Part shown: positions 1 through 53,635 of the stretch, piece after piece | Numbering within the stretch: position 1 is the first letter of the stretch | Layout: the number at the start of each line of letters is the position of its first letter | Source of the DNA: a virus | Strand: one strand, 5' to 3' | Length of the DNA stretch: 53,635 nt | Virus genome (UHGV): UHGV-1680239 | Position numbers and translations under genes: made by a program | The notes under the pieces: model-generated | Database searches by the model: none | Seen by the model: the letters and a program-made list of their open reading frames with translations, nothing else | What the model was told of the DNA's origin: nothing

Positions 1-1
1 A

Positions 2-214
2 GCCGTAGGGTCTATGATGAAATATCCAGACGGCGGGAGTGGATTAGATGGAGAAGAAGGTGAACGGTATTACACTGTAGATTATTCTGGTGTTACTGGC
101 TTGCTTGTTCAGGTAGCCAGAGAGTCAGACGACAGGATAACAGCACTGGAAGAAGAAAACGCAGAATTAAGACAAAGATTATCTGCAATTGAGGCGGCGC
201 TTGCGTCTAAATAA
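2..214 (+). CDS. 3' end of a gene that begins upstream of the window; C-terminal coiled-coil segment, function unassigned (possibly virion or tail-fibre related)
   Basis: Reading frame is open from the window edge to the stop at 212-214; heptad-like ALEEENAELRQRLSAIEAAL tail; followed by a terminator. Confidence 0.3.
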   Translation, partial: AVGSMMKYPDGGSGLDGEEGERYYTVDYSGVTGLLVQVARESDDRITALEEENAELRQRLSAIEAALASK

Positions 215-220
215 TATTAA

Positions 221-240
221 GGGGCCGAGCGCCCCGTTTT
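221..240 (+). terminator. rho-independent terminator
   Basis: GC hairpin GGGGCCGAGCGCCCC followed by a T-run immediately after the stop at 214. Confidence 0.6.
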
Positions 241-250
241 ATTGGGTGGG

Positions 251-541
251 ATGAAAATGGATATAACACCTTTCCTTCATGCACTTTGTGCTGTGGCTGC
301 GCAGGTACTGGTTGGTCTTTTTACCGGAAACTGGGCTTACGGGGCGATAGCCGGTTGTACATTCTTCATTGCGCGGGAACACACCCAGGCAGAATATCGC
401 TGGATTGAAATGTTCGGGCATGGCAAGCGTATGAATATGCCGTGGTGGGGCGGTTTTGATCTACGCGCGTGGGATGTAGCAAGCCTGATGGATTTTGCGA
501 TTCCACTTTTAGCGTGCACATTATTATATATTTTTATTTAA
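251..541 (+). CDS. small multi-pass membrane protein (holin-like candidate)
   Basis: Three hydrophobic segments in about 95 aa; sits at the head of the lysis cassette; start is ATG 251 or 257 (the track's TTG at 242 overlaps the terminator). Confidence 0.3.
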   Translation: MKMDITPFLHALCAVAAQVLVGLFTGNWAYGAIAGCTFFIAREHTQAEYRWIEMFGHGKRMNMPWWGGFDLRAWDVASLMDFAIPLLACTLLYIFI

Positions 542-722
542 TATAAGATTAACTGAGATATAGCTTACGCAAAGAAGGCAATAAATATAAAGAGAGATGT
601 TCTGAGGTAATTTATTGTTGGTGTTTAAGTTTATTTACAGATAGGTAAGTGCATACCTATATAAAAAAGATAAAATGTGATATAAATCCGCCATCCCGAT
701 TTGACTTTTCATGGAGGAAAAT

Positions 723-1046
723 ATGTCGAACGAGATGGCGGGCGTAACAACAGAGCAAGTTGAGCGCATTGCCGCGATCGTTGCTCGGGAGGTTGTCGGC
801 AAATTAGGTAAAGAGCTACGTGAAGAAATTGGCCAGGAGGTTAACGATCAGCTGAAAACCTACTTTGGTGATATGACCCCGGCGCAACATAGTATTCAAC
901 ACTCCAATCTGGACAAACTCCTTAACCGGTTGGACTCCATCTCAAGTGGGTTCTTTGGCGGCATTGTTTCTAAAATAACGTCGTTCATTATTACTGCACT
1001 GCTTTTGGGGTTAGCCGCGTATGGCGTAAAAAGTGGACTGCAATAA
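723..1046 (+). CDS. small protein with a C-terminal transmembrane anchor (lysis-cassette member; holin/antiholin candidate)
   Basis: GGAGG at 714-718 favours the ATG at 723 over the track start at 711; acidic N-terminus and one C-terminal TM helix. Confidence 0.3.
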   Translation: MSNEMAGVTTEQVERIAAIVAREVVGKLGKELREEIGQEVNDQLKTYFGDMTPAQHSIQHSNLDKLLNRLDSISSGFFGGIVSKITSFIITALLLGLAAYGVKSGLQ

Positions 1047-1059
1047 CAGGAGATCAAGG

Positions 1060-1752
1060 ATGAAGACTCCGAGAGGCATTCGTAATAATAACCCCGGTAA
1101 TCTTGATAAAGGATCACCGTGGCAAGGTCTGGTTGCGAATCCAGACGAACCGCGCTTTTGCACGTTTAAAGACCCTGTTTGGGGGATTCGCGCGCTGGCG
1201 GTGACTCTAATTACCTACCACGATAAACGTCGCGCAAAAGACGGCACAAGTATCGATACCATTCGTGAAGTTATTGAACGCTGGGCACCGCCGAATGAAA
1301 ACAATACTGACGCCTACATTAATGAGGTGTCTAAAGCCGTTGGTGTAACCGCAGACATGATCATCGATCTGCATGATTACGACATCCTTCGACCTTTGGT
1401 TGAGGCAATCATTCGCCACGAGAATGGCCGAGGCCCGCTAAAAACGCTGAACACCTGGTATGCAGCAGAAGTTATTGAGGAAGGTCTGCGTCGAGCTGGC
1501 GTTGTTAAGCCGGTGAAAACCGTGAAGGCTGTTCCTGTAACTAAAGAAACCGCAGGCGCAACTGTTACAGCAGGTATTGGTCTGGCGCAGCTGGCCGATG
1601 TTATGCCGCAGGTTTCCGCTGCTATGGATAAAGCACAAGGTCATATCTCTAGCGGGGATACAGTACGCATCATCTTCGGTATTGCCACTATTGTTGTGGC
1701 AGGATTCATTGCCTGGTCGCAGGTAAGAAAACACCAGAAAGGGATGGTCTAA
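1060..1752 (+). CDS. lysis-module protein, putative muralytic (endolysin-like) enzyme with C-terminal TM helix; family unassigned
   Basis: Position between membrane proteins and spanins; N-terminal RNNNPGNL motif that I associate with phage cell-wall-acting proteins but cannot place in a family; AGGAG RBS 7 nt before ATG 1060. Confidence 0.35.
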   Translation: MKTPRGIRNNNPGNLDKGSPWQGLVANPDEPRFCTFKDPVWGIRALAVTLITYHDKRRAKDGTSIDTIREVIERWAPPNENNTDAYINEVSKAVGVTADMIIDLHDYDILRPLVEAIIRHENGRGPLKTLNTWYAAEVIEEGLRRAGVVKPVKTVKAVPVTKETAGATVTAGIGLAQLADVMPQVSAAMDKAQGHISSGDTVRIIFGIATIVVAGFIAWSQVRKHQKGMV

Positions 1753-1753: not shown

Positions 1754-2005
1754 ATGCTAGGCAGCCTGATGACAAAGCTAAAAGTTGCTTTGATTACGCT
1801 GGCTGCCGTTCTTTTCGTTCTGGTCGGCGCTTACACGATGGGCGGAAATGCGGCGCGACGAGCAATGGAAGAGAAGGCAAAACAGGAAGACAGGAAACGA
1901 CTTCAAAACACAGTGAAAGTGGTGAATGAGACGAGCAGTAAAATACGTCAGAAAGATGCTTCTGCCGTTCATCGTGAGTTGTATGATAAGTGGGTGCGTC
2001 ATTAA
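1754..2005 (+). CDS. i-spanin (Rz-like)
   Basis: N-terminal TM helix then charged coiled-coil periplasmic domain; immediately upstream of and overlapping a lipoprotein ORF. Confidence 0.55.
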   Translation: MLGSLMTKLKVALITLAAVLFVLVGAYTMGGNAARRAMEEKAKQEDRKRLQNTVKVVNETSSKIRQKDASAVHRELYDKWVRH

Positions 2006-2141
2006 ACCACAAACCACCAGCGTGTTGTTCTGCGATGGGGCTGAGCCTATCTATATCAGCAATAATGATGTAATGACTGAAGAAACCGAACGCCAAATCC
2101 TTTTTCACAATACGATGGGAGAGAGGGTTTGTGGTTGGTGA
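1956..2141 (+). CDS. o-spanin (Rz1-like outer-membrane lipoprotein), overlapping the i-spanin gene in another frame
   Basis: Internal start MLLPFIVSCMISGC gives a signal peptide with lipobox ISG-C; short mature part with a C-terminal Cys; overlapped Rz/Rz1 architecture. Confidence 0.5.
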   Translation: MLLPFIVSCMISGCVIKPQTTSVLFCDGAEPIYISNNDVMTEETERQILFHNTMGERVCGW

Positions 2142-3291: not shown

Positions 3292-3960
3292 ATGACCAAG
3301 ATCTTTGTGGTTGGCGGCACAAAGGGCGGGCCTGGCAAATCCACCGTTGCCCAGCAAATTGCCGTTTGCCTGAAAGTCAAAAAGAAGAAGAAGGTTTATA
3401 TTACCGATATAGATATTCAGCGCACGACAACGAGCTGGTGTGAAGACCGTCGACAGAACGAAGACCTTGAGCTGATTCCTTTTGCATACGTTCAGGATGA
3501 CATCATTAAGCACCTAAAATCGCTTCAGGGTAGAGCTGAGTTTGTAGTGGTAGATGCTGGTGGCTTCGACTCCGAAATTCAGCGACAAGCGATGCTGATG
3601 GCTGACGTTATCATTATCCCGCTGCGTCCTAAGCGTCGTGATTTGAAATCTCTGCGTGACATCGATCCTATTATCGACAATGTTCGTAATGTAAACGATA
3701 AAGTGAAGGTCCGCGCGGTCATGAACCAGTGCCCGGCTTTGCCATCACAAGTGTCTCGCATTCTGGCGGCTAAAGAGATTGTTGAGACGTTTGGAATCGA
3801 GTCTGCGCCAGTCAATCTATATAACCGCAACGTCTATGATGATGCGGAAGAGTCTGGTCGTTCTATCTTTGAAATGACCGGTAGCGAGCGCGACAAAAAG
3901 GCGGAAGCCGAGTTTGAAGAATTTGTAGATTATCTGTTGAGTCTGGAGGAAGAAGAATAA
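3292..3960 (+). CDS. parA: ParA/Soj-family partition ATPase
   Basis: Deviant Walker A GGTKGGPGKST; 222 aa; followed by a small RHH-protein gene with overlapping stop/start. Confidence 0.85.
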   Translation: MTKIFVVGGTKGGPGKSTVAQQIAVCLKVKKKKKVYITDIDIQRTTTSWCEDRRQNEDLELIPFAYVQDDIIKHLKSLQGRAEFVVVDAGGFDSEIQRQAMLMADVIIIPLRPKRRDLKSLRDIDPIIDNVRNVNDKVKVRAVMNQCPALPSQVSRILAAKEIVETFGIESAPVNLYNRNVYDDAEESGRSIFEMTGSERDKKAEAEFEEFVDYLLSLEEEE

Positions 3961-4319
3961 TGTCCATGAAAATGGGTGACCTAGCAAAGCGCAAAGAGCC
4001 TGATGCACCGGCTAAGAACACAACTCCTTTGCGCCAACCAGTCAGACCACAGGGACGCCCGACTCGTGGCAAAGAGAAAATTAAAAGCCGCACAATGTCA
4101 CTGGAGGACGAATACTTCGAACTGCTGGAGATGATGAAGTTCATCCCTCGCTTCGAGAAGTTCACTCGTTCTGACGTGATTCGAGCAGCCATTTTCCATC
4201 TGGCAGAGAAGTCACCGCAGGAAATCGAGGACATCGTGAAATTGAATGAGGCGATCACCGCTGCCGATGTCACGATGCGTACCGATGAAATCAAACGAGA
4301 GTTGATGAAGAAAGGTTAA
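3960..4319 (+). CDS. small ribbon-helix-helix protein, probable centromere-binding partition partner (ParG-like)
   Basis: 119 aa, basic disordered N-terminus, RHH-like SLEDEYFELLEMMKFIPRF; translationally coupled to parA. Confidence 0.5.
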   Translation: MSMKMGDLAKRKEPDAPAKNTTPLRQPVRPQGRPTRGKEKIKSRTMSLEDEYFELLEMMKFIPRFEKFTRSDVIRAAIFHLAEKSPQEIEDIVKLNEAITAADVTMRTDEIKRELMKKG

Positions 4320-4371: not shown

Positions 4372-5139
4372 TTATGCCGCGCTAACACTATGTTCAGTCC
4401 TAACCACCCCAACCTTCACAAAAGGGCTACCGTAGCTTGGTGGCTTCTTGATTAATTTGCCTACATACAGTTTTCTAATATGCTCATCGGCTATTCTGCC
4501 AACAAATTCATAACGTTTTGTGTCGGGGCCAAGAGCTATATCCCTTGTAAAGTACTGCTGAGAACCGGCTTTGACCCAGCATTCAATCTGATAAACTTCC
4601 ATTATCAGCCCACCATATGTAGCGTAGGCATATTTGAGATTCTCGTCTCTTGGAACCTTTGCCCATACGCCACGCGTAGCTTCATATAATGCCAGAGCGG
4701 ACATTCCTGACTTGTAGGTGCTGTTTAGCAGGAAGGCAAGACCGGCGTGCTCAGGAGCAATTTCAGTTTCCTCTTGCAGCACTAAGTGATGGTAGGCGTC
4801 CAGTGATATTCTGCCCATCATGGAACCACTTCCTCGAACCTTATTCGTAAGCTCTCCGACCCCCATAAGGTCGATGCATGTCGCCTCAACAAGTTTGGCT
4901 GTGGTTTCATCCATACCATGACGAAGAATATCTATGCCTAATTTTTTATTAGCCAAAAGTTCTTTGATCCGCATGGATTTGGGAGAGTCATCGGGATACT
5001 TGATGTGATCGAGACAACGAGTCGATTTGCCTTTTCCTATGTAAAACGGTCTTTTCATCTTGTCTTCTGTATCATAGAGACAGTAAACATAGTATTTAGC
5101 CTTATCCAATGATCTCGCGTATACCGATAAATCGTCCAT
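4372..5139 (-). CDS. GIY-YIG nuclease-domain protein with uncharacterised C-terminal domain
   Basis: N-terminal YYVYCLYD...RPFYIGKGKSTR matches the GIY-(10-11)-YIG motif with the downstream Arg; about 150 aa of unassigned C-terminus. Confidence 0.55.
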   Translation of the reverse strand: MDDLSVYARSLDKAKYYVYCLYDTEDKMKRPFYIGKGKSTRCLDHIKYPDDSPKSMRIKELLANKKLGIDILRHGMDETTAKLVEATCIDLMGVGELTNKVRGSGSMMGRISLDAYHHLVLQEETEIAPEHAGLAFLLNSTYKSGMSALALYEATRGVWAKVPRDENLKYAYATYGGLIMEVYQIECWVKAGSQQYFTRDIALGPDTKRYEFVGRIADEHIRKLYVGKLIKKPPSYGSPFVKVGVVRTEHSVSAA

Positions 5140-6206: not shown

Positions 6207-7547
6207 ATGACCGAACTTTGCCATACAGGACGCGGGCTGTCCGAAGAGTTTGATGAAGATTTTCAGAACAGATTGACGGCCTATTTTTGTCGTGATCACG
6301 AGTTTCTTACTCGTGCTGGAGATCTGGTTGTACCTAACCAATTTGCCAATGCGGCCAATGCCATATTGGTTAATATGGTTTCGGGCTATTACCGTATGTA
6401 CAAGAGCGCGCCCTCTTCATCTGCGATTCTGGATATGCTTAAGCGTGCGAAACGCGATAAGACTATCCGTGAGGAACTATTCGCCGATGTTGTTGCTGCG
6501 TTTAAGCGCATCCTTGCAGAAAAATTGTCTGATACCTCGTACATGGTTGACCAGGTATCAACCTTCGCAAAAAGCGTAGCGTTTGATGATGCTCTGATTA
6601 AGGCTGCTGAACTGAAAGAGAAGGGCGACTTTCAGGGGGCGATGGCAATCATGGCCAAGGTTCAGCAGATTGGATCGAACGAAGCGACCGGAATCTATGA
6701 CTACTACACCTCCGCAAGTGAGCGATTGAAAGCGCGTGAATATGAGGCTTCAGAGGAGTATGTGCCAAACAGCATTACAACTGGACTCCCTCTGCTCGAT
6801 AGGTTGCTGTACCAAAAAGGCTGGGCGAAGCGTGAAATGGTGCTCTTCATGGGGTTCGCTAAATCCGGTAAATCGACCGCAATGGGTGAGTTTTCCATAA
6901 ACGCAACGCTTGCTGGCTACAATGTTCTGTATCTCTCGCTGGAGGTTCACACCACCATTTTATCCGACCGTTTTGATGCAAGATTGTCGGAGACAGAAAT
7001 GTCCAAGCTGGTGGAACGGCGCGATGAGGTTCATCGTAAGTTGGCAGAGTTGGGAGCCACGAAGGGGATTGGTAGTTTGTGGGTTGTTGAGCGTCCGTCA
7101 GGAAGTATGTCACCGGCAGATCTGGATCGTATGCTTAACAGCATGAAAGCCAATGGCATGGTGCCTGACATGGTTGTTGTCGACTATGCAGATTTGATGC
7201 GTGCCAGTTATGACCTTCGTGATGATCGCGCCAACATACGTAGTATCTATACCGACTTACGTGCTCTTTATGACAAACACAACGTTGCTGGTATCACGGC
7301 ATCGCAGACAAACCGTGAAGGTGGCGCGTCAGAAGTTGCCACAATGATGCACGCTGCCGACAACATCGAAAAAGTACGTATTGCTGACCTGGTAATAACG
7401 ATCAACAAAACCGAAGAAGAAGAAGCGAAAGGAGAGGCTCGTCTCTACTTTGCTGGTTCACGTAACCAGCAGGGAGGGATCAGCATTCGCGTTAAACAAA
7501 ACCTCGAACAAATGCGCTTCATTGAGCGAATCTTAGACGTTACCTAA
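6207..7547 (+). CDS. DnaB-like replicative DNA helicase (RecA-fold)
   Basis: Walker A GFAKSGKST in the C-terminal half, Walker B-like MVVVDYADLM; immediately upstream of the primase gene. Confidence 0.7.
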   Translation: MTELCHTGRGLSEEFDEDFQNRLTAYFCRDHEFLTRAGDLVVPNQFANAANAILVNMVSGYYRMYKSAPSSSAILDMLKRAKRDKTIREELFADVVAAFKRILAEKLSDTSYMVDQVSTFAKSVAFDDALIKAAELKEKGDFQGAMAIMAKVQQIGSNEATGIYDYYTSASERLKAREYEASEEYVPNSITTGLPLLDRLLYQKGWAKREMVLFMGFAKSGKSTAMGEFSINATLAGYNVLYLSLEVHTTILSDRFDARLSETEMSKLVERRDEVHRKLAELGATKGIGSLWVVERPSGSMSPADLDRMLNSMKANGMVPDMVVVDYADLMRASYDLRDDRANIRSIYTDLRALYDKHNVAGITASQTNREGGASEVATMMHAADNIEKVRIADLVITINKTEEEEAKGEARLYFAGSRNQQGGISIRVKQNLEQMRFIERILDVT

Positions 7548-7552
7548 AAAAT

Positions 7553-7577
7553 AAGCGTGGAGAACGCCTCCACGCTT
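7553..7577 (+). terminator. hairpin after the helicase gene (terminator or attenuator)
   Basis: 10-bp perfect stem AAGCGTGGAG/CTCCACGCTT with 5-nt loop, then a weak T-run. Confidence 0.4.
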
Positions 7578-7628
7578 GATTCATTGGTGAAACAACTTTT
7601 CTTTTGCCAAACCACAAAAGAAAAACAC

Positions 7629-8807
7629 ATGAGCCTTTATGTTATATCAACATTTAGGTTGGTCACAATATTGCCTATTAAAAGTGGAATTATCGTGAGC
7701 GAGCTGAAAGAGCTAATTACCGAATTAGATTTTGAACAATGGTTGGACACTGAAGGTATCGTTTATCGACGTGGAGGCGTGAGTGCTCGCGGTCGTGAAG
7801 TGAATATCAAGGAGTGTCCGGTATGCGGCAGCTCCAACTGGAAGGTATATTTCAATCTGACCAGTGGCGTCGGTAAATGCTTCGCTGGTGATCATCCCGA
7901 AGAGATTCAGTTCAATAAGCTGGTCTTCCTCAAGCACTACAGCGGCAAATCACGACGACAGTTCGAGGAATATGTGCAGAACGCCCTTCTTTCCCAGGGG
8001 TGGGCACCAAAGAAAGAAGAGATAGTGCTTGCAAGCACAGTCGAGTTAGAGGGACCACTTGCACTCCCTCGTCATTACGAACTTCCTATAGATGGCCGTC
8101 TTCCAGACTATCTGGTTGAACGAAACATATCGCCTGAAATGGCAAAGTATTTTGACCTACGATACTGCGTCGAAGGTAAGCACGCCTATGTAGATCCGTA
8201 TACAGATCAGGTTAAAGGACAGATATTCGATATGCGAATACTGATACCGGTTTACGATCTGGATGGGGTAATGAAGACATTTCAGGGACGAGACATTACC
8301 GGTACAGCAGAACGCCGCTACCTCTTTCCTATGCAGCTTCCAGCTTCAGGTAAGTTTCTCTACAACGGCCATAATGCAGTCGGCAAACAGACTGTAGTTG
8401 TCTGTGAGGGGGCGTTCGATGTTATGGGGGTTAAACGAGCTATTTTTGACGAAGAAACATTACGTGATTACGTGGAACCAATAGGAACGTTCGGGATGCA
8501 TCTATCTGGTAACACCACTCAGGATGCAGAAGATCAGTTAGGCGCGTTCCTGACGCTCAAGGCGCGTGGGTTACGTAATGTGATCATGATGTGGGATAGT
8601 GAAAAGCAAGCTATACGTAATACGATGGCCGCAGCCAGGCGACTGACCAGTATTGGTCTTAATGTCAAAGTGGCGTGTTTGGGCGAGGAAGGACTCGACC
8701 CGGGCGATGCAACGCCAGAGCAAATCATCAAAGCCTATTATCGGGCAAAACCGTATACCAAGCAGTTGGAGTTACAAAGCAAGGTTTTGGGCATTAAGGC
8801 TCTATGA
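7629..8807 (+). CDS. DnaG-type DNA primase (zinc finger plus TOPRIM)
   Basis: CPVCGSSNW...KCFAGDH zinc-binding motif; TOPRIM VVVCEGAFDV; the ATG at 7629 sits in the conserved AAAAACACATG context (track start 7557 lies inside the hairpin). Confidence 0.8.
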   Translation: MSLYVISTFRLVTILPIKSGIIVSELKELITELDFEQWLDTEGIVYRRGGVSARGREVNIKECPVCGSSNWKVYFNLTSGVGKCFAGDHPEEIQFNKLVFLKHYSGKSRRQFEEYVQNALLSQGWAPKKEEIVLASTVELEGPLALPRHYELPIDGRLPDYLVERNISPEMAKYFDLRYCVEGKHAYVDPYTDQVKGQIFDMRILIPVYDLDGVMKTFQGRDITGTAERRYLFPMQLPASGKFLYNGHNAVGKQTVVVCEGAFDVMGVKRAIFDEETLRDYVEPIGTFGMHLSGNTTQDAEDQLGAFLTLKARGLRNVIMMWDSEKQAIRNTMAAARRLTSIGLNVKVACLGEEGLDPGDATPEQIIKAYYRAKPYTKQLELQSKVLGIKAL

Positions 8808-8885
8808 TAACAATCACCTTTAAAATAAGTAGATGATTACTTATCTTTCTGTGAGAATACTTTCATCTGTTAGCTAGGAGTTGGT

Positions 8886-9662
8886 ATGAAAGACGAAATT
8901 CAGAAATTAGCCTGCGACATCATTGATAAAACTGGTTTAGAAATCAGCGAGAGCAATCGGCTAGACATCATTGAAAAAGCCGTAAAAACAGCAATGGATC
9001 ATATCGCCACTCGTTTGGTCGAGATCCCGCTACCAGGGCTACCTTATCTGAAAGTTGAGTTACACGTATGGGGTGAACCTTCTTGTTCACGGCGTTCTGC
9101 ATTAGTTGTTTTTATTAGCAAAGAAAACCCGCTCAGTCTTAAAGTGCAGGTTGGTGCATGGATGGATGGAAAAGTGATCTACACAAATACCGTTTTTTGT
9201 CTTTCAAACGACGAAACTATTGAAGCGGCCATTCAAGAAGCAGTTCTAGCAATGCGCAGCAGCGGTTTGATGAAGAATAACTACGAAGAGTACTTGCGTT
9301 CGATAAGTGGTGAAAAGACATTATCTCTGAAAGCAGATTTCGTTACCCCGAAAAATCTGTTGGAAGTCTTGCTTAATAAAGGGGCTAATGATGCCGTAAA
9401 TGTAATCAGAGAGAGTGAGTATGCGTCTCTTTGCGACATGTGCAAAAGCCAGTTGGATCTGGTGCATATCGTTATTGATGCTGGGAAGGCATGTGATGGC
9501 GTAATGGCGGAATTTGCTTGGAAGGTGGTCAGGATTGCTAACGAATTACCGATGATAGAGCAAGAGGCTAAATCATACGCCACCAATCATGTCACAGAGC
9601 TTCTTGCCCCCTATCGCTTAGAAAGCAATCAGAGCAAGATGATTAGCTGGGGAAGTTGGTAA
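8886..9662 (+). CDS. hypothetical protein
   Basis: 258-aa ORF with GGAG RBS; no recognisable motif. Confidence 0.5.
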   Translation: MKDEIQKLACDIIDKTGLEISESNRLDIIEKAVKTAMDHIATRLVEIPLPGLPYLKVELHVWGEPSCSRRSALVVFISKENPLSLKVQVGAWMDGKVIYTNTVFCLSNDETIEAAIQEAVLAMRSSGLMKNNYEEYLRSISGEKTLSLKADFVTPKNLLEVLLNKGANDAVNVIRESEYASLCDMCKSQLDLVHIVIDAGKACDGVMAEFAWKVVRIANELPMIEQEAKSYATNHVTELLAPYRLESNQSKMISWGSW

Positions 9663-9717
9663 TCTCTCCGCGCGTCGTTTTTTACGCAAATAACGATAGG
9701 TAAGTACAAGATTATTT

Positions 9718-10200
9718 ATGGCGGTAGTTGTGAAAGCTGATTTGTCAAAAATCCCTTCTATTTCAGGAAATAACGGTTATTCACTTCGTTGTGAGGAAGT
9801 AAAGATAAACGGTGAGTCGGCATATTGCAGCTATTCCGTTTGCCAGCACACCATTCTTGCCTTCAAAGAAAACCGTCTTCCTCGAACTTCTTTCCAGTCG
9901 TGCGCAACCGCTATTAAAGCAGGCAAATGCAAGGCGTTAAAAATGATGGTTGAAGAGATTCGTAAAGGAGAATCTCTGTATTTCGAAGATATGACCGCGC
10001 TCATTAAGGAGGTTGAAGAACGGAATAAACAAGCCAGAACTATAAAACGAAAACGTGACAGTGTAACGATTAATAGCATGGTTAAGAAGAGCACCACATC
10101 ACAAACAGCGATCACTGACGTGTATGCGGCGTTGCTTGAAGAAACAACAAAAGAAACACATGAGCAAATCGATCAACATATGGAGGCAAAACAACAATGA
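9718..10200 (+). CDS. hypothetical protein (Cys-rich N-terminal half, basic C-terminus)
   Basis: 160-aa ORF; stop overlaps the ligase start (ATGA). Confidence 0.5.
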   Translation: MAVVVKADLSKIPSISGNNGYSLRCEEVKINGESAYCSYSVCQHTILAFKENRLPRTSFQSCATAIKAGKCKALKMMVEEIRKGESLYFEDMTALIKEVEERNKQARTIKRKRDSVTINSMVKKSTTSQTAITDVYAALLEETTKETHEQIDQHMEAKQQ

Positions 10201-12945: not shown

Positions 12946-13020
12946 GATGGTGTAGCTCAGCGGTAGAGCAGTTGGCTGTTAACCAACTGGTCGGTGGTTC
13001 GAATCCACCCACCATCGCCA
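12946..13020 (+). tRNA. tRNA-Asn (anticodon GTT)
   Basis: Hand-folded cloverleaf: acceptor GATGGTG/CACCATC, D-arm GCTC-AGCGGTA-GAGC, anticodon loop CTGTTAA, T-arm GGTGG-TTCGAAT-CCACC, encoded CCA. Confidence 0.85.
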
Positions 13021-13025
13021 ATTTA

Positions 13026-13112
13026 GGGGAGTTAGTCCGTAGGGGCAGCGGGGTAGACTGTAAATCTACTGTCATTGCGACTCGGGTGGTTCGACTCCAT
13101 CACTCCCCACCA
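13026..13112 (+). tRNA. tRNA-Tyr (anticodon GTA), long variable arm
   Basis: Acceptor GGGGAGT/ACTCCCC, anticodon stem-loop GTAGA-CTGTAAA-TCTAC, T-loop TTCGACT, encoded CCA; D-arm geometry slightly atypical. Confidence 0.75.
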
Positions 13113-13116
13113 AATT

Positions 13117-13192
13117 GCCGGTTTAGCTCAGTTGGTAGAGCGCCTGCCTTGTAAGCAGGATGTCAGCGGTTCGATCCCGTTAACCGGCACCA
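13117..13192 (+). tRNA. tRNA-Thr (anticodon TGT)
   Basis: Acceptor GCCGGTT/AACCGGC, D-arm GCTC...GAGC, anticodon loop CTTGTAA, T-loop TTCGATC, encoded CCA. Confidence 0.85.
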
Positions 13193-13278
13193 ACACAACA
13201 GGTAAGAGCATTGGGCGAATCGGCGATACTGACCCACAAGCCCGTAAATCGATAGAGTCAGACCAGTGCTCTTACCGT
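13193..13278 (+). repeat. long hairpin element B, abutting the 3' end of tRNA-Thr
   Basis: Arms CACAACAGGTAAGAGCA / TGCTCTTACCGTTGTG with one bulge. Confidence 0.5.
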
Positions 13279-44078: not shown

Positions 44079-44083
44079 CATAT

Positions 44084-44115
44084 GGTGGGGTATATCCCCA
44101 CCTTATCTTTGATTT
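44084..44115 (+). terminator. rho-independent terminator after nrdA
   Basis: GGTGGGG-TATAT-CCCCACC followed by TTATCTTTGATTT. Confidence 0.55.
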
Positions 44116-44178
44116 GTAAGCCTTGTTTAAACACATAAGATAACAACTTGTTTAAACACATCAAAAAAGGAAAAACAC

Positions 44179-45321
44179 ATGTCATATTCAACGTTCCGTT
44201 TGGGTGCTAATGATGCAACCAAAGAGCCTATGTTCCTCGGACAATCTGTCAACGTGGCACGTTACGATCAGCAAAAATACCGTGATTTTGAAAAGTTGAT
44301 TGAACGTCAATTGTCTTTCTTCTGGCGGCCGGAAGAAGTTGATATTTCGAGCGATCGTATCGACTTCAACACGAAGCTGCGAGACCACGAACGTCACATT
44401 TTTCTGAGCAATCTCCGTTATCAAACGTTACTCGATTCAGTTCAGGGACGTAGCCCAAATGCAACGCTGCTGCCGCTTATCTCTATTCCTGAACTGGAAA
44501 CGTGGGTTGAAACATGGTCTTTCTCTGAGACTATCCATAGCCGCAGCTACACCCACATTATTCGTGGCATGGTGGACGATCCGAGCATTGTTTTTGACGG
44601 TATTGTTACGGATGAAGAAATCATCAACCGAGCGATCAGTATCTCTGCTGAATATGACAGGCTTTATGGGATGACCTGCGAGCGCCAGTCGTTAGGTGAG
44701 AAAGAGTTTGAACGTCTGTACGTAAATGAATATGGCTGGGAGCCATACCCTTTGCATCGTCAGCTTTTCCGCACGTTGGTGTCCATTAATGCGCTTGAGG
44801 CGATCCGTTTCTATGTAAGTTTTGCATGTACGTTTGCCTTTGGCGAACGGAAGTTGCTTGAGGGTAACACCAAAATTATGCGCTTTATTGCCCGTGATGA
44901 AGCTCTGCATTGCGAAGGAACTGAACGCATGATCCGCTTCATGCGTACCGGTCGCGAAGGTTTATTGTGGAAAGAGATTGCTGCTGATGAAGAAAACGTC
45001 ATTTACGACACCATGAAATCAGTCGCCGAACAAGAAATGAACTGGGCAGACTATCTCTTCAAAGACGGTTCGATGATTGGTTTAAACGCGGATATTCTGA
45101 AGACCTATGTAAAATACCGAACCAATCTGGCTATGAATCGTCTTGGCCTGAAGGCTTTATTTCCAGAAGTTACCACAGATCCGCTGGTCTGGATGAACAA
45201 GTGGTTGTTAACCGACACACTGCAAATTGCACCACAAGAGGCAGAGCAAAGCACATATCTGGTAGGTCAGATCGATTCTACCGTGGATAAGGCTTCTCTA
45301 AGCCAGTTTGCAGACCTGTAA
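44179..45321 (+). CDS. nrdB: ribonucleotide reductase small subunit
   Basis: 380 aa; di-iron/radical-site segments [14 protein letters not shown] and ALHCEG. Confidence 0.9.
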
Positions 45322-45398
45322 ACCGATACAAAGCATTATGTGGCCTGGCAACGCTGGGTCACAATGGATCACAAGAATTAAGAAGGAACAAAACTAGC

Positions 45399-46268
45399 AT
45401 GAACTTTACCAAACTGACTGACCACCTGAAACTTGCCACCGATCGACTCATTGGATTTAAGCCAGAACCATATGAGTTGCATGAAGGCCATGGTGTAGCC
45501 ACTGAAAGTATTTACAAGATGGTCGATCAGTTTCATGAACTCTTCCAGCATCCGAGACGCGTTATGCCGACACCAGAGCTGCTTCGTCTCCGTGCAAGCC
45601 TGATTCATGAAGAAGCTGTAGTGGAAGGGATTCCAGCCGCAATGAATGGGGATATTGAGCAACTGCTGGATGCAATGGCCGACTTTTTATACGTTGGTGT
45701 TGGTACGATGGTCTCCATCAAAGGTGGTATTTCTACCGGCATGACCTATTACACGCAGGAACAGAGCATTGATCGCTTTATGCAGACAATTTTTGTGCCC
45801 GGTAACACTGTTTTCGATGATATGGCAATGCCATTTCAGGAAGCTCGTGAGGCGTCATGTATGCTCGAAGAGCTGGCAGATAAACTTGAGAAGAAGGCTG
45901 TTAAGGATTCTGAGCTGATTCAGGAACTGCGCCGTGTAATGAACAAAATCTATGTGGCGTGCATGATGACTTATCGACTGGCTGATTTCCTCGGTATCAA
46001 TGTCGTCGAGCTGGTTGGCGAAATTCATCGGTCTAACATGACAAAATTATGGCCTGCTGATGTTGAGGAACGTCGCCAGGCTGTGGCCAACTGCAAATAC
46101 GACTCTTCAGATCTGGGATTCCGCCATGCTGATGGCACCGATAAGATGATCGGTTTTCGAATTTCCGATGGAAAGATTCTGAAGTCTCCAACCTATAGTG
46201 ATGTCGATTTATCCTCCTTTGTTGAGCAAGCTAAAGCCTCAGCAATGTACGGAATGATCAAAAAATAA
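45399..46268 (+). CDS. hypothetical protein (weak resemblance to all-alpha NTP pyrophosphohydrolases)
   Basis: 289-aa ORF; EE..E / D..AD-like acidic helices (LIHEEAVVE, LLDAMADFLYV); the assignment is tentative. Confidence 0.4.
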   Translation: MNFTKLTDHLKLATDRLIGFKPEPYELHEGHGVATESIYKMVDQFHELFQHPRRVMPTPELLRLRASLIHEEAVVEGIPAAMNGDIEQLLDAMADFLYVGVGTMVSIKGGISTGMTYYTQEQSIDRFMQTIFVPGNTVFDDMAMPFQEAREASCMLEELADKLEKKAVKDSELIQELRRVMNKIYVACMMTYRLADFLGINVVELVGEIHRSNMTKLWPADVEERRQAVANCKYDSSDLGFRHADGTDKMIGFRISDGKILKSPTYSDVDLSSFVEQAKASAMYGMIKK

Positions 46269-46335
46269 TTGTAGGTAGTTATCTATCTATGTATATTTAA
46301 CATGCGTAATAAAACTCTGGAATGACTATTCGTTT

Positions 46336-46361
46336 TGGTGGCCTATGGCCACCATTTTTTT
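46336..46361 (+). terminator. rho-independent terminator
   Basis: TGGTGGCC-TAT-GGCCACCA followed by TTTTTTT. Confidence 0.6.
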
Positions 46362-46438
46362 ATCTGTCTGGTCTTGTTCTCTCAATGAATGTAAACTCAC
46401 ATGATGAATAAGTAATTACTTATCTTTGTGAGGTTTTT

Positions 46439-47542
46439 GTGTCACTACTTTTGAATCGAGAGCATACGAACGGTCAGGTAACAAACGCATCGTATGCAAA
46501 AGTTATTGAGACGGTGCTTAAAAGCGGCGTGCAGGCTGATGATCGCACAGGCACTGGTACTTTAAGCACCTGCTACGTTCCCTCTTATTACATGCTTACT
46601 GGTGGGACTGTGCCGCTTATTTCTGGAAAGGCGGTAAATCTTAAGCCACTGCTTGTCGAACTTGAGTGGTATCTGAAAGGCACGGGCAACATCCAATTTC
46701 TCAAGGATAACGGCGTTAAGATTTGGGATGCATGGGCCGATGAGAATGGCGATTTGGGGCCGGTTTACGGTAAGCAGTGGCGTCGATGGGAAGATACCCG
46801 CATCGTGAGCCATAGTGAATATCTGAGCAAGATCGCTACTTTCCGTGAACGCGGGTACAAAGTCGAGGGATACCTGGGTATCAGTGAAGATCGCGTAGTG
46901 CTGTCCCGTGAAATCGATCAGCTACAGCGTATTGTCGATACACTGCGCACGAACCCTACCGATCGTCGCATCATGCTTAACGCATGGAACGTAGGCGAGC
47001 TTGAGGATATGAAACTGCCACCTTGCCACTTTGTCTTCTCTTTGTGGAGTCGTGAGCTGGATTTTGAAACCCGTTTAACGATGGCAACTGACATTGGTCT
47101 TCAACACAGTCGCCTCGGTTACGAGTCTATCTACACCAAGATGCTATACGATCTGGAGGTGGACGGCAGTGTTACTGAAGCTGAACTGGATGAACTTGGA
47201 ATCCCCAAACGCATCCTCAACTCCTGCCTCGTACAGCGTAGCGTAGACACTTTTGTTGGTATGCCATTCAATATTGCTGGCTATGGCATTCTCACTCATT
47301 TTCTCGCGAAGATTACGGGTCACATGGCCGGTGCATTTGTGCATTTTGGCTTTGACGTGCATTTGTACAACAACCACATGGAAGGTGTGTGTGAGCTAAT
47401 GAAACGACAGGCTCCAGAGCATTCAGATCCGGTCGTTATTTTCCCTCATGAATGGTCAGAGTTGGATGATTTCAAATGGGACGAGGTTTTAATTCTTGGC
47501 TATGACCCTCTATCGTGGATCAAGGTTCCAGTGGCGGTGTGA
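46439..47542 (+). CDS. thyA: thymidylate synthase (ThyA-type) with internal insertions
   Basis: DRTGTGTLS, RRIMLNAWN, PPCHFVF and C-terminal ...KVPVAV blocks; 367 aa versus about 264-290 typical; GTG start. Confidence 0.85.
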   Translation: MSLLLNREHTNGQVTNASYAKVIETVLKSGVQADDRTGTGTLSTCYVPSYYMLTGGTVPLISGKAVNLKPLLVELEWYLKGTGNIQFLKDNGVKIWDAWADENGDLGPVYGKQWRRWEDTRIVSHSEYLSKIATFRERGYKVEGYLGISEDRVVLSREIDQLQRIVDTLRTNPTDRRIMLNAWNVGELEDMKLPPCHFVFSLWSRELDFETRLTMATDIGLQHSRLGYESIYTKMLYDLEVDGSVTEAELDELGIPKRILNSCLVQRSVDTFVGMPFNIAGYGILTHFLAKITGHMAGAFVHFGFDVHLYNNHMEGVCELMKRQAPEHSDPVVIFPHEWSELDDFKWDEVLILGYDPLSWIKVPVAV

Positions 47543-47543
47543 T

Positions 47544-47957
47544 ATGGCAAGAGGTATGTATGTCTTATGCGAAATTGAAGGTGTGCTGGCAAATGCCAGC
47601 CATCGTAAATCAGTATCTGACGCGGATGCAGGCCAGCTCATTGCCGGTGATGAACTCATTTTCCCCACTAGCCGTATGTTGCGTGGTTTTGCTCGCTCAG
47701 GGGCTGAAGTGGTGCTTATCAGTAGCCGCTCTGAAACTCTTGAAGCGCCCACTAAACGATGGCTGAAAGATTTTGGCGTTGATTACGACTGGCTTTATCT
47801 CGTACCGAATGGCACCAGTTATGAGAAGCATATTAAGCGCACATTAGCGGAGCATAAAGGCGATCTGCTTATCGCTGCGCTGGTGCACGATCCTCGACTC
47901 CGTGCCGCTTTAGCCGACTCTCACCATCGACCGGTCATCTATGAGGTGAGCAAATGA
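47544..47957 (+). CDS. hypothetical protein
   Basis: ATG one nt after the thyA stop; stop overlaps the DHFR start; function unassigned. Confidence 0.4.
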   Translation: MARGMYVLCEIEGVLANASHRKSVSDADAGQLIAGDELIFPTSRMLRGFARSGAEVVLISSRSETLEAPTKRWLKDFGVDYDWLYLVPNGTSYEKHIKRTLAEHKGDLLIAALVHDPRLRAALADSHHRPVIYEVSK

Positions 47958-48430
47958 AGATGATCGCTGCTGTTGGCCGTAACTATGAGATCGGCATAGC
48001 GAATGAACTCCCCTGGCGTTGTTCTACCGATCTGAAGCTATTTAAGAGACTCACCAAAAACGCCACTGTCGTTATGGGGCGTAAAACGATGGAAAGTCTC
48101 AAACGCCCTCTTCCAGAGCGTCATAACCTCGTTTTGACGCGCTCTCATGGCTTTGTACCAAATGGATTCTACCCTGCTGGTGTGGATGATGTGTTGCGAT
48201 TACCAGAGCCTGTGTGGGTGATTGGCGGGGAACAAATTTACTCGCTATTCATGCCGCATGTTGAAGAGATTTGGCTCTCCCACATCGGCGTTGATGTACC
48301 AAACGCCGATGCATTCTTCCCGGCAAGCATGATGCGTAACTTAGGCTTTGTGCCTGTTGAAACAGCTTATACCCAACGAGCCAGCGAGGAAGAGCCTGGC
48401 TTTTCGCAGATCGTATACAGAAGGTCGTAA
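47954..48430 (+). CDS. dihydrofolate reductase
   Basis: 158 aa; N-terminal MIAAVGRNYEIGIANELPWR and a later Gly-Gly NADPH-binding pattern. Confidence 0.8.
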   Translation: MKMIAAVGRNYEIGIANELPWRCSTDLKLFKRLTKNATVVMGRKTMESLKRPLPERHNLVLTRSHGFVPNGFYPAGVDDVLRLPEPVWVIGGEQIYSLFMPHVEEIWLSHIGVDVPNADAFFPASMMRNLGFVPVETAYTQRASEEEPGFSQIVYRRS

Positions 48431-49074
48431 TGGATTACCGGATTGGGATCACTGGTGCTCAGGGCAGTGGGAAAACAACCCTGGCTAAATATATCGACAA
48501 ACATTACGGAATCCCTTACGTGGATGCTGGTGTCGGAAGTTTGATGAGCCGCCTCGGTGTTCGAGTAGGTGATTCTATGCCTCTATATGAGCGGCTTCAG
48601 ATTCAAATGGAAATAGCAAAGCATATAGAGCTACTTACGCGTGGTGTTGAAGGCTTTGTTATCGATCGCACACCTGCTGATGTTATGGCCTACACGTTGG
48701 ATTTGGTCGGCCATACCAATGAAGATCGGTGTATTGAGTTAGCCCTCGATATCGAAAAGTTTTGCCACAAAACTGCTATTTCAAACTTTAACGCCATTGC
48801 TGGCTTACGCCCGGGAGTCGCTCTCTCAGAGCGAGATTACTTGCGATCACAACGAGCATCATTAGACCGTCTGTATGTCGCTCGTATTGATGCGTTGATG
48901 TGCGGGGAACTGACAAAAATTCACCTGCATCCGCAAAGGGGAGATCTGCAAACCTTCGTCGTTTCCAACCGATATCGCACAGTTGAAGCAAGAGCCAGAT
49001 CAGTAATGAGAATGCTCGATAACGCGGTAGAAAAGATAGAAAACCTCTTCTGTGGCCGAGTGACCGTTCATTAG
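48430..49074 (+). CDS. P-loop nucleotide/nucleoside kinase-like protein (possible dNMP kinase)
   Basis: N-terminal Walker A GITGAQGSGKTT; about 214 aa; sits among nucleotide-metabolism genes. Confidence 0.5.
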   Translation: MDYRIGITGAQGSGKTTLAKYIDKHYGIPYVDAGVGSLMSRLGVRVGDSMPLYERLQIQMEIAKHIELLTRGVEGFVIDRTPADVMAYTLDLVGHTNEDRCIELALDIEKFCHKTAISNFNAIAGLRPGVALSERDYLRSQRASLDRLYVARIDALMCGELTKIHLHPQRGDLQTFVVSNRYRTVEARARSVMRMLDNAVEKIENLFCGRVTVH

Positions 49075-49564: not shown

Positions 49565-50122
49565 ATGACAACGATTGTTGCAGGCATCGATATCGAGTCT
49601 ACGGGACTGGATTTCCTTGCTGGTCATAAAATTATTGAAATCGCAATTACCCGCTATGAACTGGAGACACAGAGACATATTGATAGTCTGGAGATGCGTT
49701 TTAACCCTCGCAGAAACATAGATCCGAAAGCTCAAGCCGTTCATGGCATTTCATTGGAACAGCTCGCAGCTGAACCTTTGTTGTCAAATCATGCCAGCGA
49801 AATTGGCGCTTATATGGGGGCATGTAGTGCGTGGATTGCTCATAACGGCGAAGCGTTTGATATACCATTTATTCGACACGAGTTTTCAGGGTATGGAGTA
49901 AGACTGCCAGACGTTCCTGTTATAGATACTATGTTATCGGGATTGTGGGCCACAGAAGACGGTAAACGTCCACGCCTTGAAGAGTTGGCCTTCTCTCTTG
50001 GCTTTATATACGATCATGCCAAAGCACATAGTGCCTTATATGACACAAAATTAATGATGCAATGCTTCTTTAAGGCACGTAATAAGTACGGATTTTTTAA
50101 ATTACCCTCTGAAATTGTGTAA
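49565..50122 (+). CDS. DnaQ-like 3'-5' exonuclease (DEDDh; Pol III epsilon-like proofreading subunit)
   Basis: Exo I GIDIESTG, Exo II HNGEAFDIPFI, Exo III HSALYDT. Confidence 0.8.
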   Translation: MTTIVAGIDIESTGLDFLAGHKIIEIAITRYELETQRHIDSLEMRFNPRRNIDPKAQAVHGISLEQLAAEPLLSNHASEIGAYMGACSAWIAHNGEAFDIPFIRHEFSGYGVRLPDVPVIDTMLSGLWATEDGKRPRLEELAFSLGFIYDHAKAHSALYDTKLMMQCFFKARNKYGFFKLPSEIV

Positions 50123-51090: not shown

Positions 51091-51273
51091 CGTTCCCCTA
51101 CTGAAAATAAAGCCCATAGAGAGCTTTATATTGCTGGGTAAGCCAATCACATACCCAGCACCACAAAAACGCGCCAGAGAGCTTCTCGTTTGCATTTCTG
51201 GCGCGTTTTATTTGATTGCCAGACATAAAATCAAATGCAAAAATAGGTAATCACTTACCTATCGAGAAAGAAG

Positions 51274-51867
51274 ATGATTGCAGCCGAAAAAATCAAACAG
51301 CGAAAGCGCGACAACTCTCTTCGTGACCTCTGGAGAACACCTGACTGGCTGTTTTCTGCCATTCAACGTTATCTTGGGGTGACATTTGATGTTGACGTTG
51401 CCTGCAACAAGGACAATGCAAAGCTGCCTAATTTCATAGGCGTTGAGCGTGATGCTTTGAAATCTGAATGGGGACAGCCAGGTACAATTGCCTTCCTCAA
51501 TCCCCCCTACTCCAAAATCTCCCCCTGGATTGATGCGGCTATACGTGAGCAGGCTCGCGGAGTTACAACAGTGATGCTAATTCCTCAATCCCTAGATACA
51601 AAGTGGTATGAGCGTGCAACAGAGTGTGCGAATGAGACGATTATTCTGTCTGGTGGCCGCGTAGCGTTTGTCGAGCCTGACGTCAATCTGGGTCAGGTAG
51701 AAGTAAACATCAACCCAGGTGGCAGTATGCTCGTTGTTTTTCGAGGATTCTGTCAGGACGCTGGGCACTCTATAAGCAAGATCCCTTTGGACGTCATGAA
51801 AAGTCTGGGAGGGTATGATCCTGCGAATGTGATCAGGAAAAAAAGACCATCAAAGAAGGCTGCTTAG
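51274..51867 (+). CDS. phage-type DNA N6-adenine methyltransferase (Dam-like)
   Basis: Catalytic NPPY within FLNPPYS; N-terminal WRTPDWLF typical of small phage Dam-family enzymes. Confidence 0.8.
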   Translation: MIAAEKIKQRKRDNSLRDLWRTPDWLFSAIQRYLGVTFDVDVACNKDNAKLPNFIGVERDALKSEWGQPGTIAFLNPPYSKISPWIDAAIREQARGVTTVMLIPQSLDTKWYERATECANETIILSGGRVAFVEPDVNLGQVEVNINPGGSMLVVFRGFCQDAGHSISKIPLDVMKSLGGYDPANVIRKKRPSKKAA

Positions 51868-51888
51868 TTTGTTCTGGCGTCTGTAATT

Positions 51889-51947
51889 AGCCTGCTTCTG
51901 TATATATAAATAACTACATATTAATTATTAATATACGGAAGCAGGCT
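51889..51947. repeat. palindromic element, copy 2 of 2
   Basis: AGCCTGCTTCTGTATATATAAATAA...ATATACGGAAGCAGGCT; shares stem and left flank (CTGG(G)CGTCT) with the element at 5251-5305. Confidence 0.7.
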
Positions 51948-52028
51948 GTTTTGTATCAGAGACTCCAGACCTGAACATCACTACAGAATCCACTAGAACC
52001 CCTTCCCAGACGCTTTAAAATCGATTTT

Positions 52029-52283
52029 ATGAATCACTTTAAGGAAACTAACATGTCATACCCGACTAATGTCGTTGCGCTCGTAGAGAGCGATTTTCTG
52101 GCCCAGGCCCGTGAAATGATGAAAGATCGCGAGCAGGCTTTCAACTTGTACGAATGGGCAATTAAGTGCTTGCATCTTGGGGAGCATCGCGAACTTGTTG
52201 AACAGCTTTTAGGTGAGTTGATTAACGAGGTGTTTGCCTTGAATGTTCAACTACATGGTCGAGAAAATAATCAATCGAAATGA
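52029..52283 (+). CDS. hypothetical small protein
   Basis: 84-aa ORF (internal ATG at 52053 is also possible). Confidence 0.4.
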   Translation: MNHFKETNMSYPTNVVALVESDFLAQAREMMKDREQAFNLYEWAIKCLHLGEHRELVEQLLGELINEVFALNVQLHGRENNQSK

Positions 52284-52868
52284 TAGATAAGTACAAACTA
52301 TTCATAAAGTGAATTGTAAGTGCTAAGATCTGATAGTTTCCAGTCGTAGACTGGAGACTCGACCTGATGGGTGGGGGATAGCGTCACTGGCGTCAGGTTT
52401 AAAAAAGCTCACTACCAGCGTAGAACCGGCACCGTTTAGGGGTTGGGGAAGGGGGAACCAAAGTGGGCAGAGAGAAGGGTCACTTTATGATTGTCGAGTC
52501 TGGAGTGTTTAGAGAGGTTGAATCCAGTGCTCCCCTTCATAAAGTGTGGGAAGATCTCGGTTCTGGGGTGCTGTCATCCATAACTTCCCAAGTCTAAGCT
52601 GGCAGTAGACTTAGGCCATAACTTTTCAGGTTATGAAACGACCAGGTTGGTGAGGGATTTTTATACTCACCTCCCTGGGAGAGTATTACCTGAAAAGACA
52701 ACCTCTCACTTCGTTCGAGGTGAACTTCACTCACTTCGTTCGTTCAGTTCAGGTTTATAAAAACCTGTTCTGGGAAGTAATTTGTTTATTTTAATAATTA
52801 TTAACACGCACGCGTGTGCGCACGCGCGAGGAAAAAAAATCGGCGCGGCGCTTGATTCAGGAGTTTAT
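52284..52868 (+). other. ORF-free, GC-richer structured region (candidate non-coding RNA locus)
   Basis: No ORF of 60 aa or more on either strand across about 580 bp; several local and long-range complementarities, G-tracts, and an alternating purine-pyrimidine palindrome. Confidence 0.3.
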
Positions 52869-53462
52869 ATGACGACGAAGACACCAGCCCGATCGCAAGC
52901 AAAAACTCGCAAAAAAGCCAAAAACAAAAATTCTCCCCGCACCAATTACACAACGCCTGTCGTAGAGTTCAATCCCCAGCTTAAAACCGTGAAAATCTTC
53001 AGTGATGGATCTTGCCTTAAAAATCCGGGTGGCCCGGGCGGTTACGGTATCGTTCTTCAGTATCGTGGAGAGGAACGCGAGTTCTCAGATGGTTTTCATA
53101 GCACCACCAATAACCGCATGGAGATGATGGGGGCACTTATCGGGCTGGAGCGTTTGAAATATCCATGCAACGTTATTTTACACTCTGATAGCCAGTATCT
53201 GAAAAACGGCATGACACTGTGGATGAAATGGTGGAAACGCAATGGATGGATGACTTCTGACAAAAAACCGGTAAAGAATGTTGATCTGTGGAAGCGTCTG
53301 GATGAGGCTGCAAGTCGACATAATGTTCGCTGGAAGTGGGTTAAAGGTCACGCCGGGCATCGTGAAAATGAAATATGTGATCGACTCGCGAAGATCGCAG
53401 CTTTTTCCGCAGCAGATATGCCTCACAAGAAAGATATTGGTTTTGTTTACAACAAACGGTAG
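52869..53462 (+). CDS. rnhA: ribonuclease HI with Lys-rich N-terminal extension
   Basis: [37 protein letters not shown] and [16 protein letters not shown] match RNase HI catalytic blocks; AGGAG RBS before ATG 52869 (track start 52782 is too far upstream). Confidence 0.85.
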
Positions 53463-53635
53463 GTAAGTGTTTACCTATCATTTTAAATCATGTATCTTAT
53501 CGGCGTCAGGATGACAATGTGTCGGTAAGACACAGTTCCAGGATGGAACGAGAAAGGCGGGGGGGGGGTTTCCCCCCCCAAACTTTTTTCCCCCGGGGGG
53601 GGGGGCCACACCCCCAGCAAACAACTCTTCCTTCC

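Follow-up and report, generated by a model that had tools for sequence, protein, structure and literature searches.

The window, that is, the whole stretch of 53,635 nucleotides analysed here (UHGV virus genome UHGV-1680239), very probably represents about half of a phage-plasmid of approximately 105-112 kb, which belongs to the SSU5 supergroup and, within it, to the Escherichia coli lineage of pLF82/Cyrano. It comprises the non-structural half of this element, from the 3' end of a tail-fibre gene to rnhA, and the type of element is already known. The original prediction had read the DNA as a phage-plasmid and had assigned it to the SSU5/pHCM2 type. Direct nucleotide searches upheld this assignment, and genes for plasmid replication and partition were found alongside a lysis cassette and a phage-type replisome.

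Relatives and genomic location of the element

The closest described relative is Cyrano (OV696614), which matched positions 1-25000 of the window with 97.0% identity (87% covered, megablast) and positions 25001-50000 with 98.8% identity (100% covered). In the searches against known phage-plasmids, SSU5 (JQ965645) showed a nucleotide identity of 78-81% to the window (53-86% covered, megablast), and RepA turned out to be homologous to the RepA protein of P1. Five fetched relatives combined covered 52,932 of the 53,635 nt (98.7%) at an identity of at least 90%. In the relatives, genes for the tape-measure, minor tail and tail-fibre proteins are located directly upstream of the point equivalent to position 1 of the window.

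pLF82 of the adherent-invasive E. coli strain LF82 is identical with Cyrano; this phage-plasmid has been classed as SSU5-like, and it makes virions (PMC9928086). Plasmid maintenance and inducible virions were thus demonstrated for an element that is 97-99% identical to the window: Cyrano is present with 5.5 copies per cell, its DNase-protected virion genomes were found 32-fold above the plasmid background, and ciprofloxacin led to a 39-fold induction (PMC9928086). A previous study defined the SSU5 supergroup, of which the SSU5_pHCM2 group is a part (PMC7969092). SSU5-like phage-plasmids are widespread in Enterobacteriaceae; they have been catalogued, and surveys have covered their resistance and defence genes (PMC7969092; bioRxiv 10.1101/2025.09.12.675607).

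At a coverage of at least 80%, 158 plasmids of PLSDB matched the first 25 kb of the window and 342 matched the last 9.6 kb. The hosts of the matching plasmids are E. coli and Escherichia albertii. The fetched relatives have sizes of 105-112 kb, and pU_B2_3 (NZ_CP075058), pMTY12368_pLF82 (NZ_CP134368) and pXH988_2 (NZ_CP019354) are all circular. MOB-suite assigned the IncFIB type to pU_B2_3 and pMTY12368_pLF82, and the mobility type of the matching plasmids was non-mobilizable in nearly all cases. These typings would also fit an ordinary IncFIB plasmid that carries a few phage-like genes and is not a phage genome. However, no genes for conjugation or mobilisation were found in the window, which mostly consists of a T4-like module for replication, recombination and nucleotide metabolism together with the lysis cassette; moreover, the relatives possess full tail modules and include the isolated phages SSU5, Cyrano and PhiR41_1. 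A plain plasmid is therefore hardly credible.

Similarly, the gene for a tyrosine recombinase (15711-16814) might indicate a prophage that is integrated in the chromosome and not maintained extrachromosomally. A central 11-kb probe was covered to at least 80% in 84 of 5,426 complete E. coli genomes. Among the matches listed, all those with a query coverage of at least 12% were located on plasmid-sized records of 105-152 kb, whereas the chromosomal ones were short (5-7% coverage) and comprised the SPFH gene only. In addition, the window contains a complete maintenance set of RepA, iterons and ParA, which makes chromosomal integration extremely improbable. Both readings were rejected due to the distribution of the relatives and the gene content; in none of the relatives examined was the element located in a chromosome or best matched by a non-phage replicon.

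Domains and profiles were obtained from Pfam, NCBIfam and PHROGs, defence profiles from PADLOC, and RNA genes from Rfam and ARAGORN. Sequence identity, domain content and the anatomy of the iterons and of the origin are direct observations on the window. Of its main open reading frames (ORFs), 52 out of 59 are encoded on the plus strand.

Replicon, partition and addiction modules

A P1-type repA/iteron origin had been proposed, and this is a fair description with regard to the RepA homology, the clustered iterons, the DnaA box and the GATC sites. The replicon consists of the following features:

34448..35503, minus strand: RepA initiator of the P1/RepFIB type, Rep_3 with WH1 and WH2 (Rep3_N, Rep3_C)
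33963..34445, no strand: incA-like iteron array 3' of repA with iterons in both orientations (10 core matches in 34014-34444)
35541..36160, no strand: origin region with two diverged module copies about 380 bp apart (motif scans)
repA-proximal origin module: iterons 35541-35670; GATC stretch 35693-35790; DnaA box 35778-35786
distal origin module: iterons 35942-36050; GATC stretch 36074-36145; DnaA-box-like site 36150-36159

RepA showed 48.7% identical amino acids to the RepA proteins of P1 and P7 over 76% of the protein (E 2e-78). The iteron core CTAYAGTGGWT, with at most one mismatch, occurred 23 times in the window versus 2.3 expected matches, and 19 of these 23 lie within 34014-36046. On the 5' side of repA, the iterons are arranged with a spacing of 21 bp (35541-35670). 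A putative DnaA box with a perfect sequence, TGTGGATAA, follows at 35778-35786. GATC sites occur three times per approximately 100 nt in the repA-proximal copy and six times in the distal copy (36070-36165), in comparison to 4.4 per kb in the window as a whole.

In two further relatives, CP054387.1 (CMS-2020a strain SCU-175) and PV340561.1 (PhiR41_1), which are otherwise 95-98% identical to the window, RepA is just 50% identical; therefore, the replicon has been swapped within the lineage.

Partition is represented by two adjacent genes:

3292..3960, plus strand: ParA, Walker-type partition ATPase of 222 amino acids (MipZ/AAA_31/CbiA)
3960..4319, plus strand: ParA partner, presumed centromere-binding protein (phrog_5111)

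ParA matched NF041546 (ParA_partition) with residues 9-213 (E 1.9e-33, under the curated cut-off). It is small and possesses no N-terminal DNA-binding domain, as in type Ib systems. The gene had been predicted together with a partner of the ribbon-helix-helix (RHH) type; the domain matches bear out ParA, whereas an RHH fold of the partner could not be demonstrated. Pfam gave no domain for the partner, its comparison with PDB sequences gave chance matches only, and a Foldseek search of its model against PDB gave nothing at E ≤ 0.001. The designation of this protein as RelE/ParE toxin in the Cyrano record is unsupported as far as sequence comparisons go.

Genes for toxin-antitoxin pairs and a tyrosine recombinase had also been predicted and were recovered by domain matches. 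Together with the neighbouring regulatory and putative defence genes, they are arranged as follows:

2174-2695, minus strand: GNAT acetyltransferase toxin (Acetyltransf_7/_1)
2703-3044, minus strand: TacA/DUF1778 antitoxin (TacA1, E 7.5e-26)
4372..5139, minus strand: PD-T4-3-like GIY-YIG nuclease (LEM-3_GIY-YIG, E 5.5e-7; PADLOC PD-T4-3, E 1.3e-23)
14509..15537, plus strand: YafO cassette with a presumed antitoxin of 202 amino acids 5' of YafO (phrog_13546)
15127-15537, plus strand: YafO toxin (YafO_toxin, E 2e-21)
15711-16814, plus strand: tyrosine recombinase (Phage_integrase, E 4.7e-10)
16809-17195, minus strand: helix-turn-helix repressor-like gene, divergent from the recombinase gene (HTH_19, weak; 'putative repressor' in Cyrano)
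24927..25775, minus strand: two-gene module, termed 'HicAB' in Cyrano (PADLOC PDC-M06B, E 1.9e-32; PDC-M06A, E 1.2e-19)

Two of these loci are variable. The YafO cassette is present in pU_B2_3 and absent from Cyrano and pXH988_2. The GIY-YIG gene, which is flanked by the par operon on one side and by replication genes on the other, is present in pXH988_2; Cyrano and pU_B2_3 carry other genes in this slot. In a large surveillance study, PD-T4-3 was among the defence genes of SSU5-type phage-plasmids from E. coli and Shigella (bioRxiv 10.1101/2025.09.12.675607). The name HicAB for the module at 24927-25775 was discarded, as neither HicA nor HicB of Pfam matched even at E 0.1. PHROGs lists the larger protein as 'excisionase and transcriptional regulator', and PDC-M06 is a candidate defence system.

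Lysis cassette, phage replisome and RecA intein

The 5' end of the window carries the end of a tail-fibre gene, followed by the genes for cell lysis:

1..214, plus strand: 3' end of a tail-fibre gene, last 70 codons, the sole virion gene fragment in the window
251..541, plus strand: membrane protein of 96 amino acids with transmembrane (TM) segments at residues 5-26 and 76-96 (phrog_1443, E 1.8e-54)
711..1046, plus strand: putative holin with one C-terminal TM segment (residues 80-107), named by position (phrog_5093, unknown function)
1033..1752, plus strand: endolysin (phrog_873, E 6.5e-89)
1754..2005, plus strand: Rz-like i-spanin with a TM segment at residues 1-32 (phrog_1026, E 7e-25)
1926..2141, plus strand: o-spanin, Rz1-like lipoprotein (phrog_1275, E 4.7e-25; lipobox ISGC in MLLPFIVSCMISGC)

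A spanin-containing lysis cassette had been claimed, and the endolysin and both spanins were verified by means of PHROGs matches, TM segments and the lipobox. The start of the o-spanin ORF lies inside the Rz gene, whose 3' end it overlaps in a different reading frame. The orthologue of the gene at 711..1046 carries the label 'Holin' in the Cyrano record; here, the assignment is based on the position and the single TM segment. For the endolysin, a C-terminal TM segment is predicted (residues 208-231), and the orthologue was labelled 'membrane protein' by PGAP. The anchor of signal-arrest-release endolysins is normally located at the N-terminus. Rz1 of the Cyrano record (2539-2658) comprises merely 39 amino acids and has neither signal peptide nor lipobox, and this annotation looks truncated.

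The stretch 1..214 showed 94-98% nucleotide identity to the 3' ends of the tail-fibre genes of the lambdoid phages Tritos, 2G7b and PhiR46_1, and the membrane protein gene at 251..541 accompanies the tail-fibre tip cassette. These three phages have genomes of about 46 kb, are otherwise unrelated to the window, and are 94-98% identical to it in positions 1-638. The segment 1-638, comprising the tail-fibre tip and the protein with two TM segments, is not shared with Cyrano, and 1..214 is shared neither with Cyrano nor with pU_B2_3. Judged by these identities, the segment looks like a host-range cassette that was swapped through recombination. A Peptidase_S74-type chaperone domain at the C-terminus of the tail fibre was considered and was unsupported by Pfam on the fragment of 70 amino acids.

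Several observations weigh against the assignment of the window to a functional phage-plasmid. The structural and packaging half lies outside the window, so that this copy is known from its non-structural genes and 70 tail-fibre codons only. Upstream of parA, no centromere repeat array was found but only a 20-nt palindrome (3163-3182), and for the ParA partner, an RHH fold is hinted at by a sub-threshold match to aCcr1, a family of RHH proteins (E 2.3e-4), while the single-sequence AlphaFold2 model is of low confidence (predicted local distance difference test, pLDDT, of 67; helices 48-59, 70-82 and 86-118 after a disordered N-terminus). Furthermore, at least one SSU5-like Klebsiella plasmid has been presented as a plasmid in which phage genes are conserved and not as a demonstrated phage (PMC8969562). 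The latter example would suit a defective phage-derived plasmid of the same family, which replicates and partitions without forming infectious virions. This reading would also agree with the restriction of the visible part to the non-structural half, with insertions of insertion sequences and transposons in relatives, among them IS91 and ISEcp1/CTX-M-15, and with the frameshift in the RuvC-like gene of pXH988_2. On the other hand, all 59 main ORFs of the window are intact and of full length in comparison to the relatives, the lysis cassette is intact, as is the end of the tail-fibre gene, and the nearly identical Cyrano produces virions (PMC9928086). Hence, a defective plasmid is improbable, and a phage-plasmid of the Cyrano lineage remains the preferred reading.

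The largely co-directional array of genes for a replisome and for nucleotide metabolism, which had been predicted as well, was found with all listed classes present in Pfam, NCBIfam and PHROGs, the match of the primase being weak:

6207-7547, plus strand: DnaB-like helicase (DnaB_C)
7557-8807, plus strand: primase, weak (DNAG_N/Toprim_2 just under the cut-off; TIGR01391, E 2.7e-9)
within 6207..11519, plus strand: two unknown genes between primase and ligase
10197-11519, plus strand: ATP-dependent DNA ligase (domain match)
14168..14413, plus strand: glutaredoxin (PF00462, E 8.7e-11)
21378..24896, plus strand: DnaE, alpha subunit of DNA polymerase III (DNA_pol3_alpha, finger, HHH_6, PHP)
5' part of 26030..28612, plus strand: UvsY-like mediator, weak (phrog_231, E 1.9e-4)
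26579-27607, plus strand: gp32-type single-stranded DNA-binding protein (SSB; gp32, E 1.7e-66)
27617-28612, plus strand: 5'-3' exonuclease/flap endonuclease (FEN; 5_3_exonuc_N, 5_3_exonuc)
28881..31220, plus strand: RecA-like recombinase of 779 amino acids, interrupted by an intein (RecA, Intein_splicing, LAGLIDADG_3)
29073-30338, plus strand: class 1 intein of 422 amino acids with LAGLIDADG homing endonuclease, within the Walker A motif of RecA
37146-38231, plus strand: SbcD (Metallophos)
38461-40377, plus strand: SbcC (AAA_23/SMC_N/SbcC_Walker_B)
41120-41689, plus strand: RuvC-like resolvase (phrog_159, E 8.5e-57), with an unknown gene between SbcC and the resolvase
41763-44078, plus strand: NrdA (Pfam)
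44179-45321, plus strand: NrdB (Pfam)
46439-47542, plus strand: ThyA of 367 amino acids (Thymidylat_synt, E 6.6e-78)
47954-48430, plus strand: DHFR (Pfam)
within the block 41763..49074, plus strand: MazG-like, PNKP-phosphatase-like and P-loop kinase-like genes (Pfam)
49565..50122, plus strand: DnaQ-like DEDDh 3'-5' exonuclease (RNase_T, E 5.1e-21)
52782..53462, plus strand: RNase HI (PF00075, E 6.6e-44)

Neither a sliding clamp nor a clamp loader was found among the genes of the window, and the term near-complete replisome, as used in the original prediction, is therefore fair. The match to Thymidylat_synt identifies the thymidylate synthase as ThyA and not as ThyX, as given in the Cyrano record. 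The Pfam profile of 266 positions was matched in two stretches, and the protein contains about 100 extra residues; ThyA proteins typically comprise approximately 264 amino acids.

The recA gene is interrupted by an intein with the junctions GPPSAGK|C...HN|TFLATA, that is, with Cys1, a terminal His-Asn and Thr+1. Its N-terminal end is CVTADTML, its C-terminal end together with the adjoining Thr+1 is GIISHN|T, and the endonuclease contains the two LAGLIDADG motifs LMGYLIADGYV and FLRGYFELECHV. An intein-free recA allele encoding 357 amino acids was detected in the circular plasmid NZ_OZ369275.1, the exteins being 100% identical to those of the window, and alleles with and without intein are found on backbones that are about 98% identical. 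In the literature searched, no paper was found that treats the intein, RecA and SSU5 jointly. It is conceivable, although rather unlikely, that the intein is actively homing among the SSU5-like phage-plasmids of E. coli and that the distal, better-preserved module (35942-36160) acts as a second, working origin and is not a decayed duplicate.

Beside these genes, the window encodes some accessory functions:

12946..13599, plus strand: tRNA cluster Asn(GTT), Tyr(GTA), Thr(TGT), Ser(TGA) (ARAGORN)
17758..21197, plus strand: CobT-like von Willebrand factor A protein and AAA_5 (CobS/MoxR-like) ATPase (CobT_C, E 2.9e-82; AAA_5, E 2.1e-15)
31517..32347, plus strand: SPFH/Band-7 membrane protein (Band_7, E 2.6e-30)
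51274..51867, plus strand: Dam-type N6-adenine methyltransferase (PF05869, E 2.5e-38)

Rfam recovered three of the four tRNAs, tRNA-Ser being under the threshold, and the scan of the window with Rfam revealed tRNAs only, with no family of riboswitches, introns or antisense RNAs. The stretch of the Asn, Tyr and Thr tRNAs is 84-90% identical to clusters in P7 and in the P1-like phage vB_EcoM-Ro157c2YLVW. The pair of CobT-like and AAA_5 proteins is kept across the family between the integrase/repressor genes and dnaE.

The gene content suggests how the element may alternate between both lifestyles. During lysogeny, it would persist as a low-copy circular plasmid, with RepA binding to the iterons of a P1/RepFIB-type origin with DnaA boxes and a GATC cluster. 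By analogy with P1, the iteron array 3' of repA probably limits the copy number via handcuffing. The small ParA and its partner would segregate the plasmid copies, the resolution of multimers is most likely the task of the tyrosine recombinase, and the GNAT/TacA and YafO modules may penalise a loss of the element by post-segregational killing. Upon induction, the replisome of the element itself would take over genome amplification for lytic growth, using the helicase, primase, DnaE, DEDDh exonuclease, gp32 SSB, FEN, RNase H and ligase, while clamp and clamp loader are presumably provided by the host. The RecA/UvsX-like, UvsY-like, SbcCD and RuvC-like proteins would serve recombination, and NrdAB, ThyA, DHFR, glutaredoxin and MazG the supply of deoxynucleoside triphosphates. 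Finally, holin, endolysin and the two-component spanin would lyse the cell.

These results add nothing to existing knowledge of such elements, and their practical value lies in the annotation. The right label is SSU5/pLF82-type phage-plasmid and not cryptic IncFIB plasmid. Moreover, several labels of the Cyrano record appear wrong or unsupported: ThyX, which should read ThyA, the truncated Rz1, and RelE/ParE as well as HicAB, which are without domain support.

Comparison with Cyrano, SSU5 and P1

The gene order of Cyrano is collinear with that of the window from the lysis cassette to past the DHFR gene. RepA is 99.7% identical, and the RecA intein and the origin region are common to both. Differences occur at five places. 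Positions 1-638 of the window contain another tail-fibre tip cassette, the PD-T4-3-like GIY-YIG gene at 4318-5240 stands in place of CYRAN_30, an additional tRNA-Tyr at 13023-13497 is absent from Cyrano, the YafO cassette at 14386-15579 stands in place of CYRAN_43, and 218 nt within dnaE (23564-23781) are divergent.

The plasmids pXH988_2, pU_B2_3 and pMTY12368_pLF82 are 97-99% identical to the window. With the first, it has the GIY-YIG gene and the complete set of four tRNAs in common, with the second the YafO cassette, and with the third positions 35504-53560 at 99.1%. Each of the GIY-YIG, tRNA-Tyr, YafO and dnaE segments is matched in one or more of the other fetched plasmids, and the tail-fibre tip in NZ_CP124469.1, but no single fetched relative has all variable cassettes. 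The window thus combines known variants in a mosaic fashion.

SSU5 has the same architecture as the window, and its RepA is 90.7% identical; it differs in coming from another host genus and in being less identical, and some parts of the window could not be aligned to it. P1 resembles the window in its replicon (repA/oriR/incA), that is, in a homologous RepA, iterons on either side of repA, and DnaA boxes with a GATC cluster. In contrast, the remaining element is unrelated to P1, and the origin module of the window consists of two diverged copies. Partition also differs: the window uses a small ParA of 222 amino acids, whereas P1 possesses a large ParA together with ParB/parS.

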